A stretch of 64,000 nt of DNA, taken from assembly GCA_015056485.1 (NCBI GenBank), contig SVGD01000002.1, forward strand, positions 71,662 through 135,661, given 5' to 3'. Under the pieces are notes generated by a model. The model had not been told where the DNA came from and searched no databases. It saw nothing but the letters and a program-made list of their open reading frames with translations. A program made the position numbers and the translations under genes. This stretch comes from Clostridiales bacterium. Lineage in GTDB: Bacteria > Bacillota > Clostridia > TANB77 > CAG-508. Positions 6,668 through 62,275 of this stretch are shown piece by piece. Within the stretch, counting starts at the first letter, position 1, and every line of letters starts with the position of its first letter.

Positions 6668-6761
6668 GAAGTGCGAAGTGTGAGGTGCAAGGTGCGATTT
6701 TATGGTTATTCTTCGTAGACTTTACCCAAATTCACGCTTCCCACATCTCACCTCTCACTTC
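6668..6761. repeat. GAAGTG-hexamer inverted repeat element, copy A
   Basis: GAAGTGCGAAGTGTGAGGTGCAAGGTGCG ... CACGCTTCCCACATCTCACCTCTCACTTC; same architecture at 35694, 47725, 62183. Confidence 0.8.
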
Positions 6762-6784
6762 TAAATACATTGTTATATATAAAT

Positions 6785-7153
6785 TCATATTATAATTTCA
6801 ATTTTTTCTCCATCTTTTAAATTATATTTTTCTCTAAAATTAACATTAGATACTATTTCAATTATATTTATTGGTTGGGTTCCTTCTTCGTTCTCATTTG
6901 CTTTAGTTCTTAGAATATACGATTTTTTTCCTAAAACACTACATTCTTTCACGAGAACTTCTTGTGTTCCTCCATATTCATTTGGAGCAAATTTAATTAC
7001 ATCTGTTCCTAATAAATATTCACAGTTCACATCTATATTTAATGTACCTTCAAAAAGTTCCATTCCTATTTTTTCAGAAAAAACATTTTTTATTTTTTTT
7101 ACCCAACTACTTGCTTCTCCTAATCCTGAAACTACTTGTCCTTGTAATATCAT
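6785..7153 (-). CDS. archaeal-type CTP-dependent riboflavin kinase-like protein (DUF120)
   Basis: 122 aa; QGQVVSGLGEASSWV ... FEGTLNIDV resembles DUF120/RibK motifs (GxVxSGxGxGxxW, PGTLN). Confidence 0.5.
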   Translation of the reverse strand: MILQGQVVSGLGEASSWVKKIKNVFSEKIGMELFEGTLNIDVNCEYLLGTDVIKFAPNEYGGTQEVLVKECSVLGKKSYILRTKANENEEGTQPINIIEIVSNVNFREKYNLKDGEKIEIII

Positions 7154-7166
7154 TATGTTCTCCTTT

Positions 7167-7901
7167 TTATAATATTTCTAATTTTATAATTGCATTTTCA
7201 ATTTCTGTTTCTTTATTTTTTATGACTATTAAATATTCATCATCATTGATTACTGAATATTTACATATAATTTCATCTTTAGGTTTTATTTCATTTTTAT
7301 ATGAAATTTCAATGTTCTTAAAAACCTTAGAATTATAAATTTCCTCTGGTAAAGTTTCATAAGCAAAATCTAAATAATTCAAATTATTTACATGATGATT
7401 GGTATCTATATCTCTTCTTTGAATTCTATAAGCAAACTCTTCTTGATAAAATTCAGGCTCTTTTATTTTAACAAACTTATGACTTGGAAAAACGTCTTCT
7501 TCGTGTATCGTATGCAGATTAACAAATCTATCTTCAACTTTTTTTGCTATTTTTTTCTTAATATCCATTAAAATCCATCTCGAAGTTGCTATTGCTATTT
7601 TTTCACCTCGTGAATTCAATATTTCAAAATCACGATAAAAATACAACTTATCTATTTTTCTTACCCATGTTTTTACAACTATATTATCATTATATTTAGG
7701 TTTATCCATAACATTAAGCTTCCAATTTGTTATTATCCAACCTAAATTTTCTTTTGCAAGTTCTTCTAAACCGCATCCCATTTCATCTGAATGCATTCCT
7801 GCTATTTTCTGCATATATTTCAAAATGCTTTTCTCTGTAGCTTTTCTATTTTCTCCAATATCATAATATTCTACTTTAAAATTTTGTTCAAATTTAGACA
7901 C
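7167..7901 (-). CDS. acyl-ACP thioesterase
   Basis: 244 aa, two hot-dog halves, RRDIDTNHHVNNLNYLDF motif typical of FatA/B-type acyl-ACP thioesterases. Confidence 0.8.
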   Translation of the reverse strand: MSKFEQNFKVEYYDIGENRKATEKSILKYMQKIAGMHSDEMGCGLEELAKENLGWIITNWKLNVMDKPKYNDNIVVKTWVRKIDKLYFYRDFEILNSRGEKIAIATSRWILMDIKKKIAKKVEDRFVNLHTIHEEDVFPSHKFVKIKEPEFYQEEFAYRIQRRDIDTNHHVNNLNYLDFAYETLPEEIYNSKVFKNIEISYKNEIKPKDEIICKYSVINDDEYLIVIKNKETEIENAIIKLEIL

Positions 7902-7971
7902 TTTACATGACCTCTTTTCTAACTATGAATTATATCATACTTTTATTTTTTATAGCAAGCTTTTTAAGAAC

Positions 7972-8000
7972 TTGCTTTTTTATGTAAATTGTAGTATAAT
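7972..8000 (+). promoter_or_regulatory. sigma-A-like promoter (TTGCTT-17-TATAAT), copy 1 of shared promoter module
   Basis: cTTGCTTttttatgtaaattgtagTATAAT; near-identical to 39300, 40058, 40298. Confidence 0.6.
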
Positions 8001-8035
8001 ATAATAGAAAAAAATATAGAAAGGGGATATCTCCC

Positions 8036-8368
8036 ATGTTAATCGCAATTTTATTCTTGTCCCTCGCAAGCGCAGGTATTCTTGAAGTTATCGCCGTTCC
8101 AACAATTTTCTTCGGAATCTTGTTGGCCTTTATACCTAAAAAAGAAAATTCAAAAGGTATAGGGGTCAGAGGATTTGGCGTAATACTTGCAGGAGTATCA
8201 ATAATGGTGTTTGCTGCGCTTAAAATCTTTGAAGCGTATTTAACATATTGGCTCTTTTGGGTAGGTTTTATTTTTATTGTTACTGCAATCATCGGTATCG
8301 TAACATTAATATTCAATAAAACCAAACACCTTCCAGTATGGGCAAAAATCATTCTTGCAATCCTCTAA
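8036..8368 (+). CDS. small 3-TM membrane protein, GC-rich islet gene
   Basis: 110 aa, RBS AAAGGGGAT 7 nt upstream, GC about 40% vs about 25% surroundings; antisense ORF 7930..8352 judged spurious. Confidence 0.55.
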   Translation: MLIAILFLSLASAGILEVIAVPTIFFGILLAFIPKKENSKGIGVRGFGVILAGVSIMVFAALKIFEAYLTYWLFWVGFIFIVTAIIGIVTLIFNKTKHLPVWAKIILAIL

Positions 8369-59610: not shown

Positions 59611-59645
59611 CTTCCTTTAATAAATTTTAATTGTATTTAATGTTT

Positions 59646-60398
59646 TTATTTATTATAATTTACAATTTTAGCAAATTCTTCGGCAACTAAACTTGCTCCA
59701 CCTACTAATCCACCATCTATATCTGACATTTCAAATAATTCTTTAGCATTTGATGATTTTACACTTCCACCATATTGAATTATCACTTTACTTGCAACTT
59801 CTTCTCCATAGTTTTTAGCAACTTCTTCTCTTATCCATTTAATTGTTTCATTTGCATCTTCTTTTGTTGCTGTTTTTCCTGTTCCAATTGCCCAAATTGG
59901 TTCATATGCTATTATTGTATCTTCTACCTCTTTATTAGTTAAACCTTCTAAAGCTAATTTTGTTTGTGTTGTAACTATTGTTTTCGCATCTCCTGATTCT
60001 CTTTGTTCTAAGCTTTCACCTATACAAACTATTGGTTTTAATTCTAAGCTTAAAGCTTTTTTCAATTTTTTATTTACAGTCTCATCTGTTTCATTATAAT
60101 ATGCTCTTCTTTCAGAATGGCCTATTATTACATATTCTACTCCAATAGATTTTAACATTTCCCCTGAAACTTCACCTGTATATGCACCTTTTTCTTCCCA
60201 ATTCATGTTTTGTGCACCTATTTTTATATTTGTTCCTTGCGCCATATTTAAAGCATAGAATAAATCTGTATATGGAGCACATATTACTACTTCATTTTCA
60301 GAGTCCTTTACATAGTTTTCTAATTCCTCAATAAATGATATAGCCTCATTTGGCAATTTATTCATTTTCCAGTTTCCTGCTATTACTTTTTTTCTCAT
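59646..60398 (-). CDS. tpiA: triosephosphate isomerase
   Basis: 250 aa; GNWKMN, IGHSERR, AYEPIWAIGTG. Confidence 0.9.
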   Translation of the reverse strand: MRKKVIAGNWKMNKLPNEAISFIEELENYVKDSENEVVICAPYTDLFYALNMAQGTNIKIGAQNMNWEEKGAYTGEVSGEMLKSIGVEYVIIGHSERRAYYNETDETVNKKLKKALSLELKPIVCIGESLEQRESGDAKTIVTTQTKLALEGLTNKEVEDTIIAYEPIWAIGTGKTATKEDANETIKWIREEVAKNYGEEVASKVIIQYGGSVKSSNAKELFEMSDIDGGLVGGASLVAEEFAKIVNYNK

Positions 60399-60420
60399 AA
60401 AAATTCTCCTTTATTTTTTA

Positions 60421-60945
60421 TTAAAAACCTGTTATTAATTCTATTTTTTCATTTTCTATATCATAAATAAATAGTTTCCCATCAACTAATTTATTATTTA
60501 TTGTACCACTAACATTTCCACTGCTTCCAGCTAATGATAGACCTTCAATATCGTTAAATTCTATTGTATATTCACAATATCCTATAATTTTATTTTCTTC
60601 TATATCTTCTTCAGGTATTTTTATTTCTGCAATTTCTGTATATTCTTTTGTATAAATTGTTATATTATTAACAAATATATCTTTTATCTCATTATCAGAA
60701 GCAATAAACTCACCTATATTGCTTTTTGAAGGATTTGACAAAGATTGATATATTTTTTCAAAATCGCTAGATTCATTTTCAATACTTTCTTGATTTATTA
60801 CGCTAGAATCTTCTTTACTATTATCAGTAGTATCATCTTGATAATTATTTGTATACATTATACCTATTACTGCTAACAATATTATTATAATTACTATACA
60901 TATAATATTCACAATACTTATACTCATTTTTTTATCTTTTTCCAT
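60421..60945 (-). CDS. hypothetical N-terminally anchored protein inserted between pgk and tpiA
   Basis: 174 aa, single TM helix then acidic/Ser-rich region and beta-rich C-terminus; no family recognised. Confidence 0.45.
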   Translation of the reverse strand: MEKDKKMSISIVNIICIVIIIILLAVIGIMYTNNYQDDTTDNSKEDSSVINQESIENESSDFEKIYQSLSNPSKSNIGEFIASDNEIKDIFVNNITIYTKEYTEIAEIKIPEEDIEENKIIGYCEYTIEFNDIEGLSLAGSSGNVSGTINNKLVDGKLFIYDIENEKIELITGF

Positions 60946-60972
60946 ATCTTTCCTCCATAAATTTATGTATCA

Positions 60973-62158
60973 TTATTTCTCTTCTAAGCATTCAATTCCA
61001 GGTAAAAGTTTTCCTTCTAAGAACTCTAAAGATGCTCCTCCTCCTGTTGAAATATGAGTCATCTTATCTGCTAATCCTAATTTTTCTATTGCTGCGGCAG
61101 AGTCGCCTCCTCCAATGATTGTTATAGCGTCTATATTCGCAAGTATACTTGCAACTGCTTTTGTTCCTACCTCAAATTTAGGAAATTCACAAACACCTAA
61201 TGGACCATTCCACACTACTGTTTTTGCATTTTTTACTACTTCTTCAAATTTTTCAATTGTTTTTGGTCCAATATCTAATCCCATAAACCCTTCTGGAATT
61301 TCTTCTGATGATACAATCATACTTTCTGCATCATTAGAATATTCTGAAGATACATTATTATCTATTGGCAATAAAATCTCTACATTTTTTTCTTTAGCTT
61401 TTTCTAACAAACTATTAGCTAACTCTATTTTATCATCTTCACAAATTGATGTTCCAATACTATGTCCTTGTGCTTTATAAAATGTATATGCCATTCCTCC
61501 ACCAATTATTAAAGTATCAACTTTATCTATTAAATTTTCTATTACTCCTATTTTATCAGAAACTTTTGCTCCTCCAAGTATTGCTACAAATGGATGTGCT
61601 GGTTCTTCTAAGGCTCCACCTAAAAACTCTAATTCCTTTTCGATTAAAAATCCTGAAACAGCAGGTAAATAATCTGCAACACCTGTTGTTGAGCTATGTG
61701 CTCTATGTGCAGTTCCAAACGCATCATTTACATATACTTCAGCCATTTCAGCTAACGCTTTTGAAAATTCTGGTTCATTTTTTTCTTCTTCTTTATGGAA
61801 TCTTACGTTTTCTAGTAAAACTACTTCTCCTTCTTTTATATTAGATGTAAGTTCTTTTGCACTTTCTCCAATTACATCTGTAGCTAATTTCACCTCTTTA
61901 TTTAGTAATTTTGAAAGTTCTTCAGCTACTGGTTTTAAAGAATATTTTTGATTAAATTCTCCTTTTGGTCTTCCTAAATGCGAGCAAAGAATTACTTTTG
62001 CATTATTATCTAACAAATATTGTATAGTTGGAATTGCAGCTTTAATTCTTCTATTATCTGTAATAGTTCCATCCTCTGAATTTATTGGAACATTAAAGTC
62101 ACATCTAACTAATACTTTTTTACTGTTAACGTCTATATCTTTTACTGTTTTTTTATTC
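60973..62158 (-). CDS. pgk: phosphoglycerate kinase
   Basis: Start ATG 62158 with AAAGGAGAG RBS (track ORF has 31-aa N-extension); [11 protein letters not shown]...RCDFNVP, GGGASLE. Confidence 0.9.
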
Positions 62159-62182
62159 ATTGTATCTCTCCTTTTAAAATAT

Positions 62183-62275
62183 TGAAGTGTGACGCGGGAG
62201 GTGTGATGTGTGAAATAGAAAATATGTTTTATCAGTAATTTTCTAAATCTCACTTCCCACTTCTCACTTCACACT
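62183..62275. repeat. GAAGTG-hexamer inverted repeat element, copy D
   Basis: GAAGTGTGACGCGGGAGGTGTGATGTGTGA ... CTCACTTCCCACTTCTCACTTCACACTTC. Confidence 0.8.

Follow-up and report, generated by a model that had tools for sequence, protein, structure and literature searches.

Relation to described repeat families

Repetitive extragenic palindromes, known as REPs and REPINs, carry a GTAG or CGTC tag and are linked to RAYT transposases. Correia, RUP and Nezha elements are bacterial MITEs (miniature inverted-repeat transposable elements), small sequences without coding function whose variable interior is enclosed by terminal inverted repeats of fixed polarity; terminal repeats built from four tandem 7-bp units are not known to be a feature of these families. 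Heptanucleotide repeats have a patchy distribution across phyla, and the mechanism behind them is not known (PMC4679880). In Xanthomonas, GGGAATC arrays mostly comprise four units, and some form inverted pairs between convergent genes (PMC4692102). In pSM19035, each 7-bp unit accommodates one omega dimer, and at least four contiguous units are required for full activity (PMC9499535).

The window analysed here, meaning the whole 64-kb stretch of DNA from a gut Clostridia genome, contains four intergenic loci that resemble each of these systems in part. Like REPs and REPINs, they are short non-coding imperfect palindromes present in many copies, located mostly in tandem or convergent spacers just downstream of coding regions, a placement also given for REPs (PMC3733652), and in sister genomes a GTAG-REP fills the exact slot of a window element. 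However, a REP is a unique 20–40 bp stem, whereas the arms of the elements described here are 27–28 bp arrays of a 7-bp unit, mismatched at two of every seven positions. Neither the four copies nor the 108 elements of the wider set have a GTAG or CGTC tag at their flanks, and no RAYT gene was seen in the 64-kb window, where the unannotated open reading frames have no Pfam match. With the Correia, RUP and Nezha families, the elements share a small, non-coding format, fixed-polarity terminal inverted repeats, a variable interior, dispersal in either orientation and presence that varies between strains; the inverted repeats of the window copies enclose a non-coding interior well within the limit of about 300 bp. 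A target-site duplication, as expected of MITEs, could not be defined for the window copies (a check suggested by the earlier note on this DNA found no direct repeat shared by their flanks), and no parent insertion sequence was found. About 1.3 Mb of fetched loci yielded no autonomous, transposase-encoding element with matching ends and no candidate protein, and in no fetched locus does a pair of arrays flank a transposase-like open reading frame.

The known heptanucleotide SSRs (cyanobacterial STRR, Xanthomonas GGGAATC, Nostoc GGGGAYT and Beggiatoaceae TAACTGA) likewise consist of tandem intergenic units with a 7-nt period, but they are mainly direct arrays of other units, some of them upstream of start codons; an inverted design of four plus four units that starts with the G-rich arm and leaves two positions of each unit free is not described there. 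The omega (ParB) arrays of pSM19035 also have 7-bp units in direct and inverted order, and a TCAC/GTGA core is common to both systems. However, each plasmid has six contiguous arrays, which overlap promoters of its own genes, whereas those described here are interrupted by a core, follow housekeeping genes and lie scattered on chromosomes in many phyla. Given this placement, and with no linked par or RHH gene, the arrays do not look like an omega-type operator or centromere. The heptad element matches no described family, and no Rfam family or paper describing it was found.

Architecture of the heptad elements

The earlier note described the arms as runs of a GAAGTG hexamer. Direct reading and TRF instead give a period of 7, with a unit of G-A-n-G-T-G-n (GAnGTGn) that usually occurs four times per arm. 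Each window copy consists of two facing, inverted arrays of this unit around a core, with arms of 20–28 bp and cores of 16–40 nt in place of the proposed 10–30 bp spacer. A two-unit pattern (GAAGTGNGARGTG, at most two mismatches) has 28 matches in the window against 4.6 expected from shuffles, a count reached by 0 of 100 shuffles; 25 of the matches fall inside the four loci, and the same pattern revealed no fifth copy in the window. The four copies lie where they had been placed, with the refined coordinates given below, and their gene neighbours (rsmE and a ribK-like gene, glgP and coaW, pnp and rpsO, pgk and gap) had been named correctly. Every flanking gene is on the minus strand, and each spacer thus separates genes of the same strand.

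Copy 1 (6668–6761) has its G-rich arm (G-arm) at 6668–6694, with the units GAAGTGC, GAAGTGT, GAGGTGC and AAGGTG, followed by a 40-nt core that contains a small hairpin of its own and by the C-arm at 6735–6761. Its spacer is bounded by the stop codon (6785) of a riboflavin-kinase-like gene and the rsmE start codon (6649), and along the mRNA strand 7 nt separate the end of the copy from the ribosome-binding site (AAAAAAAGGAG); Pfam confirms RsmE and a CTP-dependent riboflavin kinase-like protein here. Copy 2 (35695–35772; G-arm 35695–35721, 24-nt AT-rich core, C-arm 35746–35772) occupies the spacer between a glgP-type gene and a pantothenate kinase gene, identified by Pfam as a GlgP-type phosphorylase and a type II pantothenate kinase (Fumble). 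A GTAG-tagged GC-rich hairpin with a T-run (about 35786–35809) stands 14 nt beyond copy 2 on the plus strand; on the mRNA (minus) strand, this hairpin precedes the copy, after the kinase gene.

Copy 3 (47727–47789; G-arm 47727–47746, 16-nt core, C-arm 47763–47789) has three clean units in the G-arm and four in the C-arm, and lies between rpsO and pnp, with RpsO and PNPase confirmed as neighbours. Here a GC-rich, terminator-like hairpin of rpsO (about 47806–47826) stands 16 nt beyond the copy on the plus strand, and hence ahead of it on the mRNA (minus) strand. Copy 4 (62184–62277; G-arm 62184–62210, 40-nt core, C-arm 62251–62277), in which the second G-arm unit is degenerate (GACGCG), fills the gap–pgk spacer, starting just past the stop codon of gap and leaving about 15 nt ahead of the ribosome-binding site of pgk. 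Its neighbours are probably Gap and Pgk, by synteny with a relative (L125) that is about 95–97% identical to the window in nucleotide sequence.

In a wider set of 108 elements from genomes of 25–75% GC, the number of units is exactly four in 151 of the 216 arms, and cores have a median length of 41 nt. Many cores hold a small GC hairpin of their own, and arrays of 9, 11 and 20 units also exist. Position 7 of the unit is uniform within an element in high-GC lineages; in the Clostridia family, positions 3 and 7 vary from unit to unit, and the order of the unit variants is kept between copies and between MAGs (metagenome-assembled genomes).

Distribution, polarity and placement

The G-arm-first design occurs at at least 115 loci in the genome collection, spanning about ten phyla and 25–75% GC. 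Further copies beyond the window, on which the earlier note had made the repeat family depend, are numerous in related genomes. The polarity is nearly universal: the reverse arrangement is found at only 8 loci in the whole metagenome collection, mostly as two-unit palindromes, and the G-arm comes first at 5 loci against 0 in viral contigs and at 7 against 1 for a related unit. Other heptad units (GGATAGT, TGGAGAG, GAAGCGT, AGTTATC and others) make similar inverted arrays, different units sometimes share one contig, and TAACTGA-type inverted arrays are present in one fetched locus (L124). In one related MAG, a 134-bp version occurs as identical copies at at least four loci, each with unique sequence on at least one side. 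Its outer inverted repeat, AATTGTAATTTG...CAAATTACAATT, is mostly flanked by TA, as judged by eye.

By crude longest-ORF gene calls, 52 elements lie in tandem spacers, 21 in convergent and 4 in divergent ones (p = 8e-6 against 25% divergent), at a median distance of 18.5 nt from the upstream stop codon. Elements also occur within operons that continue downstream, including ribosomal-protein operons, and their orientation relative to the genes is 14:12. Genes nearby belong to ABC transporter and two-component system families and to ribosomal operons, with no recurrent neighbour beyond such common paralogues, and the elements have no coding capacity.

Turnover between relatives

In the rpsO–pnp spacer, the element is absent from three relatives (L159, with 97% PNPase identity, L160 and L163). 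The RFK–rsmE spacer of L155 and L156 has a GTAG-REP hairpin in place of copy 1, and the gap–pgk spacer contains a GTAG-REP pair in L125 and L131–134 and a heptad element in L128–130; strains that are about 98% identical carry either allele. A sister MAG has heptad elements at other loci (L031 and L042). At two of the three orthologous sites, the relative therefore has a different hairpin element and not an empty spacer, and no clean empty site was recovered at orthologous sites. The window's separate GC-rich family carries GTAG. The earlier note had considered it unrelated to the heptad elements, which is true of the sequences, but both families use the same intergenic slots in sister genomes. 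Such replacement could equally reflect a need for some hairpin in these spacers, or homologous recombination that swaps entire spacers. As is expected of MITEs, presence or absence at orthologous sites is accompanied by identical copies at unlinked loci.

Pairing and folding

The long imperfect hairpins proposed in the earlier note are real in that all eight strand-specific folds are stabler than shuffled sequences, with dG between −25 and −39 kcal/mol and z between −4 and −8, but the paired stretches of the stems are 2 and 3 bp long, unit positions 3 and 7 are mostly mismatched, and the hairpins are far less regular than had been implied. Similarly, the right arm is the reverse complement of the left at five fixed positions only. 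These five (G1, A2, G4, T5 and G6) are Watson-Crick paired between the arms and conserved in both (88–100%). At position 3, Watson-Crick pairing is 17% against a shuffled null of 38% in the low-GC set, 48% against 46% in the high-GC set and 20% against 29% with near-duplicates removed; the pair types are G-C 12, G.T 66 and A.C 53. No compensatory change was detected at positions 3 and 7, where pairing is at or below chance, and the five that pair do not covary but stay invariant.

The transcript strand leaves no visible mark either. On the sense strand, G.U and A.C pairs are balanced at 68:68, this strand folds more stably than the antisense strand in 25 of 52 cases, and neither measure, nor orientation, shows a strand preference. 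Five or more T within 10 nt downstream on the sense strand are found in just 5 of the 52 tandem-context elements, while 33 of the 52 are A-rich at this place. An intrinsic (Rho-independent) terminator was rejected, as there is no U-tract and elements lie inside operons that continue downstream. Rfam gave no match at the gathering score in the window and only sub-threshold generic microRNA-hairpin matches in related loci, and a structured RNA family, for which covariation was also absent, was set aside. The combination of no covariation, no strand preference and no U-tract argues against a selected RNA hairpin or terminator, and five near-invariant positions in both arms, with no compensation elsewhere, favour recognition of each unit by a protein. 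The element behaves as would a small repeat that is selfish or read by a protein.

Possible origin and function

We lean tentatively towards reading the four loci as a REP/MITE-like dispersed element whose arms are arrays of protein-recognition units. Each copy would present two convergent arrays of (usually) four 7-bp 5′-GAnGTGn-3′ units, pointing inward around a short variable core, and a trans-acting protein, most likely an enzyme by which the element is copied or moved, would read each unit sequence-specifically and thereby keep the units. That both arms carry this motif, oppositely oriented, is consistent with one DNA-binding specificity and with ends whose polarity always runs from outside to inside. 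Copies would settle in spacers downstream of genes or between cistrons, sparing promoters, and the imperfect hairpin in the transcript would be a tolerated by-product and not the selected feature, although it may act as a REP does, through 3′-end protection or segmental mRNA stabilization. What the data show is the design of the elements, conservation of their positions without covariation, the G-first rule, where in the genome they lie and how they differ between relatives; read-out of the units by a protein, mobility and its mechanism are our inference. The earlier suggestion of a novel non-autonomous element or protein-binding array thus gains from conservation, dispersal and turnover; the window copies and fetched loci supplied no target-site duplication, autonomous partner or binding protein for it.

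It is also conceivable, if unlikely, that the selected feature is an RNA hairpin, a REP-like stem-loop between cistrons or in 3′ UTRs that blocks 3′-to-5′ exonucleases, sets gap versus pgk levels or serves as an RNase III target, in which case any stable hairpin family could fill the slot. The folding energies and the position right after stop codons and between cistrons, including in ribosomal-protein operons, are in keeping with this, as is the presence of a REP or heptad hairpin at gap–pgk and RFK–rsmE in each relative examined, which fits a need there; REPs are distributed alike in genomes (PMC3733652). However, two variable positions without compensatory change, five paired positions that do not covary, equal G.U and A.C counts, similar sense and antisense energies and random orientation with respect to transcription are not expected of such a hairpin, and it leaves unexplained why the G-rich arm always comes first. 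Immobile chromosomal sites for an architectural or regulatory host protein, perhaps with one ribbon-helix-helix dimer per 7-bp unit by analogy with omega/ParB of pSM19035, would account for a conservation pattern of the kind expected if each unit is read out directly. The sharp peak at four units per arm parallels the at least four contiguous 5′-WATCACW-3′ heptads of that plasmid (PMC9499535), and the C-arm unit TCACTTC has TCAC in common with them. Yet we consider this quite doubtful: the sites are downstream of genes and not at promoters, unlike a regulon they vary from one sister genome to another and even among strains with about 98% identity, some contigs hold many different units, and no candidate protein gene is linked to the elements.

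Mutation without selection offers an account that seems improbable on its own, namely that heptanucleotide repeats expand by polymerase slippage at the base of existing hairpins, with intra-strand templating keeping both arms alike. An excess of heptameric repeats in bacteria is known, and a polymerase-footprint hypothesis has been put forward for it (Mrazek 2007, as cited in PMC4692102), and the Xanthomonas GGGAATC arrays, too, are mostly of four units and in some cases inverted (PMC4692102). The cores with their own small GC hairpin and the uniform position 7 in high-GC lineages would suit this model, and from arrays as long as 20 units it is evident that slippage is at work as well. However, slippage would homogenize all seven positions, whereas Clostridia units differ at 3 and 7 and keep the order of their variants between copies and MAGs; its equilibrium does not predict a narrow mode of four, and alone it accounts neither for one unit at four unlinked window loci nor for the G-first rule. 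Least probable, in our estimate, are tandem Chi-like sites for the control of recombination, read on single-stranded DNA by RecBCD or AddAB, so placed that the far arm offers active sites to an enzyme arriving from either end, which then leaves a 3′ tail ending in the GT-rich arm and unable to fold back. The G/T-rich unit resembles Chi sites known from Firmicutes: GAAGTGG is one transition away from the Staphylococcus aureus Chi GAAGCGG (that of Lactococcus lactis is GCGCGTG), and single sites are recognized with just 30–40% efficiency, so that arrays would help (PMC5959072). Single-stranded read-out needs no pairing between arms, which fits the absent covariation, avoidance of a fold-back tail could give the G-first rule, and a period of 7 is the tightest packing of an 8-mer with G at its start and end. 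Nevertheless, GAAGTG is not over-represented in the 64-kb window: outside the four elements, base composition predicts about 18 occurrences on the gene strand and about 3 on the other, and the observed counts are 12 and 1. Furthermore, one unit is found in phyla with different end-processing enzymes, and single contigs hold several different units.

That different heptad units form similar arrays means that a single binding protein cannot explain them all. Returning to the dispersed element with protein-read arms, a broader and rather speculative extension is that the 4+4 G-arm-first array is the cis-site of a widespread machine that reads 7-nt units singly. This may be a new transposase or HUH-type enzyme, a DNA binder that oligomerizes as omega does, or a complex for end processing or recombination. 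Were this the case, the long-noted bacterial excess of heptameric repeats, including STRR, GGGAATC, TAACTGA and others, would be the footprint of one class of machine rather than of polymerase slippage.

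Structure and setting of the elements in the window

On direct reading, the four heptad elements of the window (copies 1–4, refined to 6668–6761, 35695–35772, 47727–47789 and 62184–62277) share one build: G-A-n-G-T-G-n units form the left arm and n-C-A-C-n-T-C units the right arm, with 16–40 nt of AT-rich core in between. Each arm has four units, save that copy 3 has three clean ones on the left. The earlier note described these loci as inverted repeats based on the hexamer GAAGTG; the period is 7 at all four, not 6. The family itself is real, and is both more regular and far more widespread than is visible from the window. 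A two-unit pattern with ≤2 mismatches matches the window 28 times, against 4.6 expected, and 25 of the 28 matches fall inside the four loci, so a fifth copy is absent from the window.

The flanking genes are those named earlier: RsmE and a CTP-dependent riboflavin-kinase-like protein for copy 1, a GlgP-type phosphorylase and a Fumble-type pantothenate kinase for copy 2, RpsO and PNPase for copy 3, and Gap and Pgk for copy 4. In the mRNA sense, copies 1 and 4 occupy intercistronic spacers and stop a few bases short of the ribosome-binding site that follows, and a GC-rich terminator-like hairpin precedes copies 2 and 3 by 14–16 nt. The window has a GC content of 24–34% and a strong strand bias, with the minus strand carrying nearly all genes. 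Its lineage comprises uncultured spore-forming Clostridia from gut and rumen metagenomes, the nearest named relative being MAG RGIG2998 (GCA_017437145.1), and its RpsO is matched on JGI contig Ga0216339_10000142.

The same design in other genomes

A scan of one genome per species for two G-units, 30–60 nt and two C-units gives at least 115 loci, with about 11 expected by chance, a figure we estimated from the pattern's information content. The hosts among the matches listed include many Clostridia and Bacillota MAGs, Gemmatimonadales, Longimicrobiaceae, several Acidobacteriota orders, Bacteroidota (including a Hymenobacter isolate), Verrucomicrobia, Planctomycetes, Acidimicrobiia, Thermomicrobiales and a Desulfofundulus isolate, and the GC content of these loci ranges from 0.25 to 0.75. 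The arrays run past the scan pattern in almost all of the matches listed; exactly four units are present in 151 of their 216 arms, the median core is 41 nt, and many cores contain a small hairpin of their own.

The Clostridia elements have a conserved inner module of 42 nt and a conserved order of unit variants (GAAGTGA GAAGTGG GATGTGG GAAGTG ... CACCTCA CACTTCA CACCTCT CACATC), which is common to different copies and to MAGs from goat, human and other sources. One MAG has the heptad element nested within an outer inverted repeat (AATTGTAATTTG...CAAATTACAATT); here, identical 134-bp copies occupy at least four loci, where unique sequence adjoins every copy on one side or both, and the junctions are mostly TA.

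Isolated arms are also found. The syntenic sister MAG has a solo arm of three units, CACCTCA CACATCC CACTTC (L125, 20105–20124), and the orthologous place in the window (~52095–52135) is a degenerate C/A-rich stretch of period 7 after a terminator hairpin, so single arms exist and decay quickly. A BLAST search against plasmids and phages yielded a sole find, the direct array (CCTCACA)x10 of E. coli pO157 (L154, AB011549.2, ~54350–54420). These ten copies of the C-arm unit occupy an unannotated stretch downstream of the nikB region, and the array is conserved in ~300 E. coli plasmids.

Placement among genes

Placement figures are based on crude longest-ORF gene calls. Among the matches listed, the spacers that hold elements are tandem in 52 cases, convergent in 21 and divergent in 4 (p = 8e-6 against 25% divergent), the elements lie a median of 18.5 nt from the upstream stop codon, and ~16% of upstream genes terminate within the first units. 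Four genomes have elements between cistrons within ribosomal-protein and secY-adk-map operons (L011, 5151–5926; L023, 3619–5416; L066, 1588–1655; L075, 1012–7650), at a different junction in each. When 540 neighbouring ORFs were clustered in search of a recurrent neighbour protein family, just ABC transporters, two-component systems and secY/map operons emerged. As for an autonomous partner, the sole long-range array pair in the fetched loci, on viral contig L121, encloses a phage tail-like gene and no transposase.

Turnover between relatives and the GTAG-REP family

The GC-rich repeat family of the window consists of GTAG-tagged, REP-like hairpins with the layout GTAGGGGCG-stem-loop-stem. Their heads are located at ~35786–35809, 36657, 39994, 42359, 43150, 44170, 48354, 48572, 51458–51483 and 52170–52195, and several are followed by a T-run and are terminator-like. 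The gap-pgk spacer, which holds a heptad element in the window, holds an inverted GTAG-REP pair in the sister MAG (97% Pgk identity). The same two states occur as alleles of a common gut species, in genomes ~98% identical over 20 kb, where replacement takes in the entire spacer, from stop codon to ribosome-binding site. Between the RFK-like gene and rsmE, a lone GTAG-REP is present in two relatives, and its TAG is the stop codon of the riboflavin-kinase-like gene. Between rpsO and pnp, the element is absent from a relative with 97% PNPase identity and from two more distant relatives; these relatives all retain the terminator hairpin as well as a conserved leader motif. The spacer downstream of eno (L128–L134) measures 60, 112, 156 or 297 nt among strains ~98% identical. 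One of its alleles (e.g. L130, 17841–18139) has a REP pair nested in a heptad element with an outer AAATTGG...CAAATT repeat, and in the shortest the last enolase codons are altered. Elsewhere, at L031 and L042, the sister MAG does have heptad elements. These allele differences indicate that copies are gained, lost and swapped quickly, and that the heptad and REP families share a niche. No clean empty site for a target-site duplication was recovered from the spacers of relatives, which either contain REP hairpins or have diverged beyond alignment.

Two further features of these regions vary or persist among relatives. The pnp leader (window 47594–47700; L159–L164) contains a motif, TAGCTTGTA ... 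TAGAGGTTAC, that is conserved in all relatives and is possibly a regulatory stem; two of these loci (L161 and L162) have an extra insert of ~150–200 nt within the leader. Between pgk and tpi, the minus strand of the window (60421–60945) has an ORF of 174 aa without a Pfam match, which is 303 aa in several relatives (L128, 11362–12273) and missing in other strains ~98% identical to those relatives.

Base pairing and arm polarity

Both strands of every window copy fold as RNA with dG of -25 to -39 kcal/mol (z of -4 to -8 against shuffled sequence), through stems made up of short two- and three-pair runs, and no strand folds consistently better than the other. When the arms are compared position by position, the five fixed unit positions are Watson-Crick paired in 88–100% of cases. 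At position 3, pairing reaches 17% in the low-GC set, where shuffled partners give 38%, and 48% in the high-GC set, where they give 46%. Position 7 equals the shuffled level in the low-GC set and exceeds it solely in high-GC lineages, whose elements have all units alike. With near-duplicates collapsed to 15 diverse Clostridia elements, pairing is 20% at position 3, against 29% by chance, and at chance at position 7. The pair counts at position 3 are G.T 66, A-T 60, A.C 53, T.T 43 and G-C just 12.

An intrinsic terminator would require a U-tract after the element, and a T-rich stretch lies 3' of it on the sense strand in just 5 of 52 elements, which rules this candidate out. A strand-specific RNA element is likewise ruled out: mismatches that allow wobble and those that do not (G.U versus A.C) stand at 68:68 on the transcribed strand, the sense fold is the more stable in 25 of 52 cases, in keeping with equal fold energies, and the asymmetric Clostridia form is oriented 14:12 relative to genes. 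On these figures there is no sign of selection for pairing. Mimicry of Shine-Dalgarno and anti-Shine-Dalgarno sequences (GAGGTG/CACCTC) is set aside because position 3 is more often A than G, and the idea that the arrays supply stop codons in all frames is dropped because GAAGTGC-type arrays lack any stop codon. Rfam at gathering score gives zero matches on the window, and at an E-value threshold just sub-threshold microRNA-hairpin noise in five related loci. The conserved feature is the motif G-A-n-G-T-G-n in every unit of both arms. In duplex DNA the arms are one motif in opposite orientations, and a single sequence-specific reader would account for both.

The G-rich arm comes first on either strand, and the reverse order is rare. 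Viral contigs have the G-first pattern at 5 loci and the reverse at 0; a related unit gives 7 and 1 loci, respectively. Across the whole metagenome collection, the reverse pattern matches 8 loci, mostly ordinary two-unit palindromes, with two or three real arrays. A separate case among the reverse-pattern matches is metagenome contig L148 (~500–590), which has TTTAGGG telomere-type repeats and is probably eukaryotic and irrelevant to the heptad family. The G-first rule needs a directional cause, because the hairpin is about equally stable in either order. Alternative causes would be avoidance of a fold-back 3' tail after end resection, or of an exposed C-rich RNA stretch; the simplest explanation is the fixed end polarity of a mobile element.

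A wider family of heptad units

The scrambled units GTGAAGN, GGATAGN and TGGAGAN were meant as controls for whether GAAGTG is special. They too gave inverted heptad arrays (GGATAGT/GGTTAGT, TGGAGAG/TGGAGAA, GAAGCGT/GGTGAAG), and are not independent, because the free position is filled so as to form an AGTG(G) core. The matches reveal a wider heptad family. TRF on all loci adds inverted pairs with other units, about half of which contain AGT; one, AGTTATC/ACTGATA, is the TAACTGA repeat of Beggiatoaceae (PMC4679880). Many arrays of the wider family lie at gene junctions of high-GC, phage tail-like viral contigs (L119–L124 and L135–L141, several from samples 3300033141–3300033156), with GGTTAGT, GGATAGT, GAGTGGA, AGTTGAG and other units; they reach 15 units, and some immediately adjoin start codons. 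Period 7 predominates over 5, 6 and 8 in this sample, which is biased to the family. The window itself has a second heptad unit without an inverted partner, a solo direct array of five TTTGGAN heptads (44107–44145) downstream of a glycosyltransferase gene, adjoining a GTAG-REP hairpin with T8.

The over-representation of heptameric repeats in bacteria has been known for almost twenty years, and its cause is not agreed. A polymerase-footprint idea has been put forward for it (Mrazek 2007, cited in PMC4692102), with no tested mechanism reported. Most GGGAATC arrays of Xanthomonas are four units long, with some inverted ones between convergent genes (PMC4692102). TAACTGA arrays are patchy over Beggiatoaceae, Cyanobacteria and Bacteroidetes (PMC4679880). 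A literature search with the repeat strings found no paper that contains them, just unrelated primer matches. REPs are placed like the heptad element but are defined by GTAG or CGTC tags (PMC3733652). The one well-studied case of 7-bp units read singly is omega/ParB of pSM19035, with WATCACW heptads in direct or inverted arrangement and at least 4 contiguous units needed for full activity (PMC9499535). The heptad unit also resembles Firmicutes Chi sites (GAAGCGG, GCGCGTG, AGCGG; PMC5959072). The single unit motif is not over-represented in the window, which weakens a Chi reading. GAGAAGTG is similar to the FtsK/SpoIIIE-orienting motif of B. subtilis, GAGAAGGG.

Significance

How the units are conserved and oriented, where the elements lie and how they turn over are all observed. 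The reading with the best support is that of a dispersed, REP/MITE-like element; each arm would be an array of four protein-recognition units in a fixed inward direction, and the RNA hairpin a side effect. On this reading a protein would recognise the units, and the element would be mobile. A fixed unit grammar (G A n G T G n), a preference for four units, strict inward polarity, no dependence on base pairing and a range from Clostridia to Gemmatimonadota and viral contigs together point to a unit-reading protein, and give the puzzle of heptameric repeats a sharply defined, testable form. There is a fair chance that the element marks something more fundamental about bacterial heptameric repeats, and the arrays are ready-made probes for fishing out the inferred reader. 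The elements are also a hidden source of intergenic-spacer variation between near-identical gut strains, useful as strain markers, and because they lie inside core operons (gap-pgk, rpsO-pnp and ribosomal-protein operons), they may alter how strongly neighbouring genes are expressed relative to one another.
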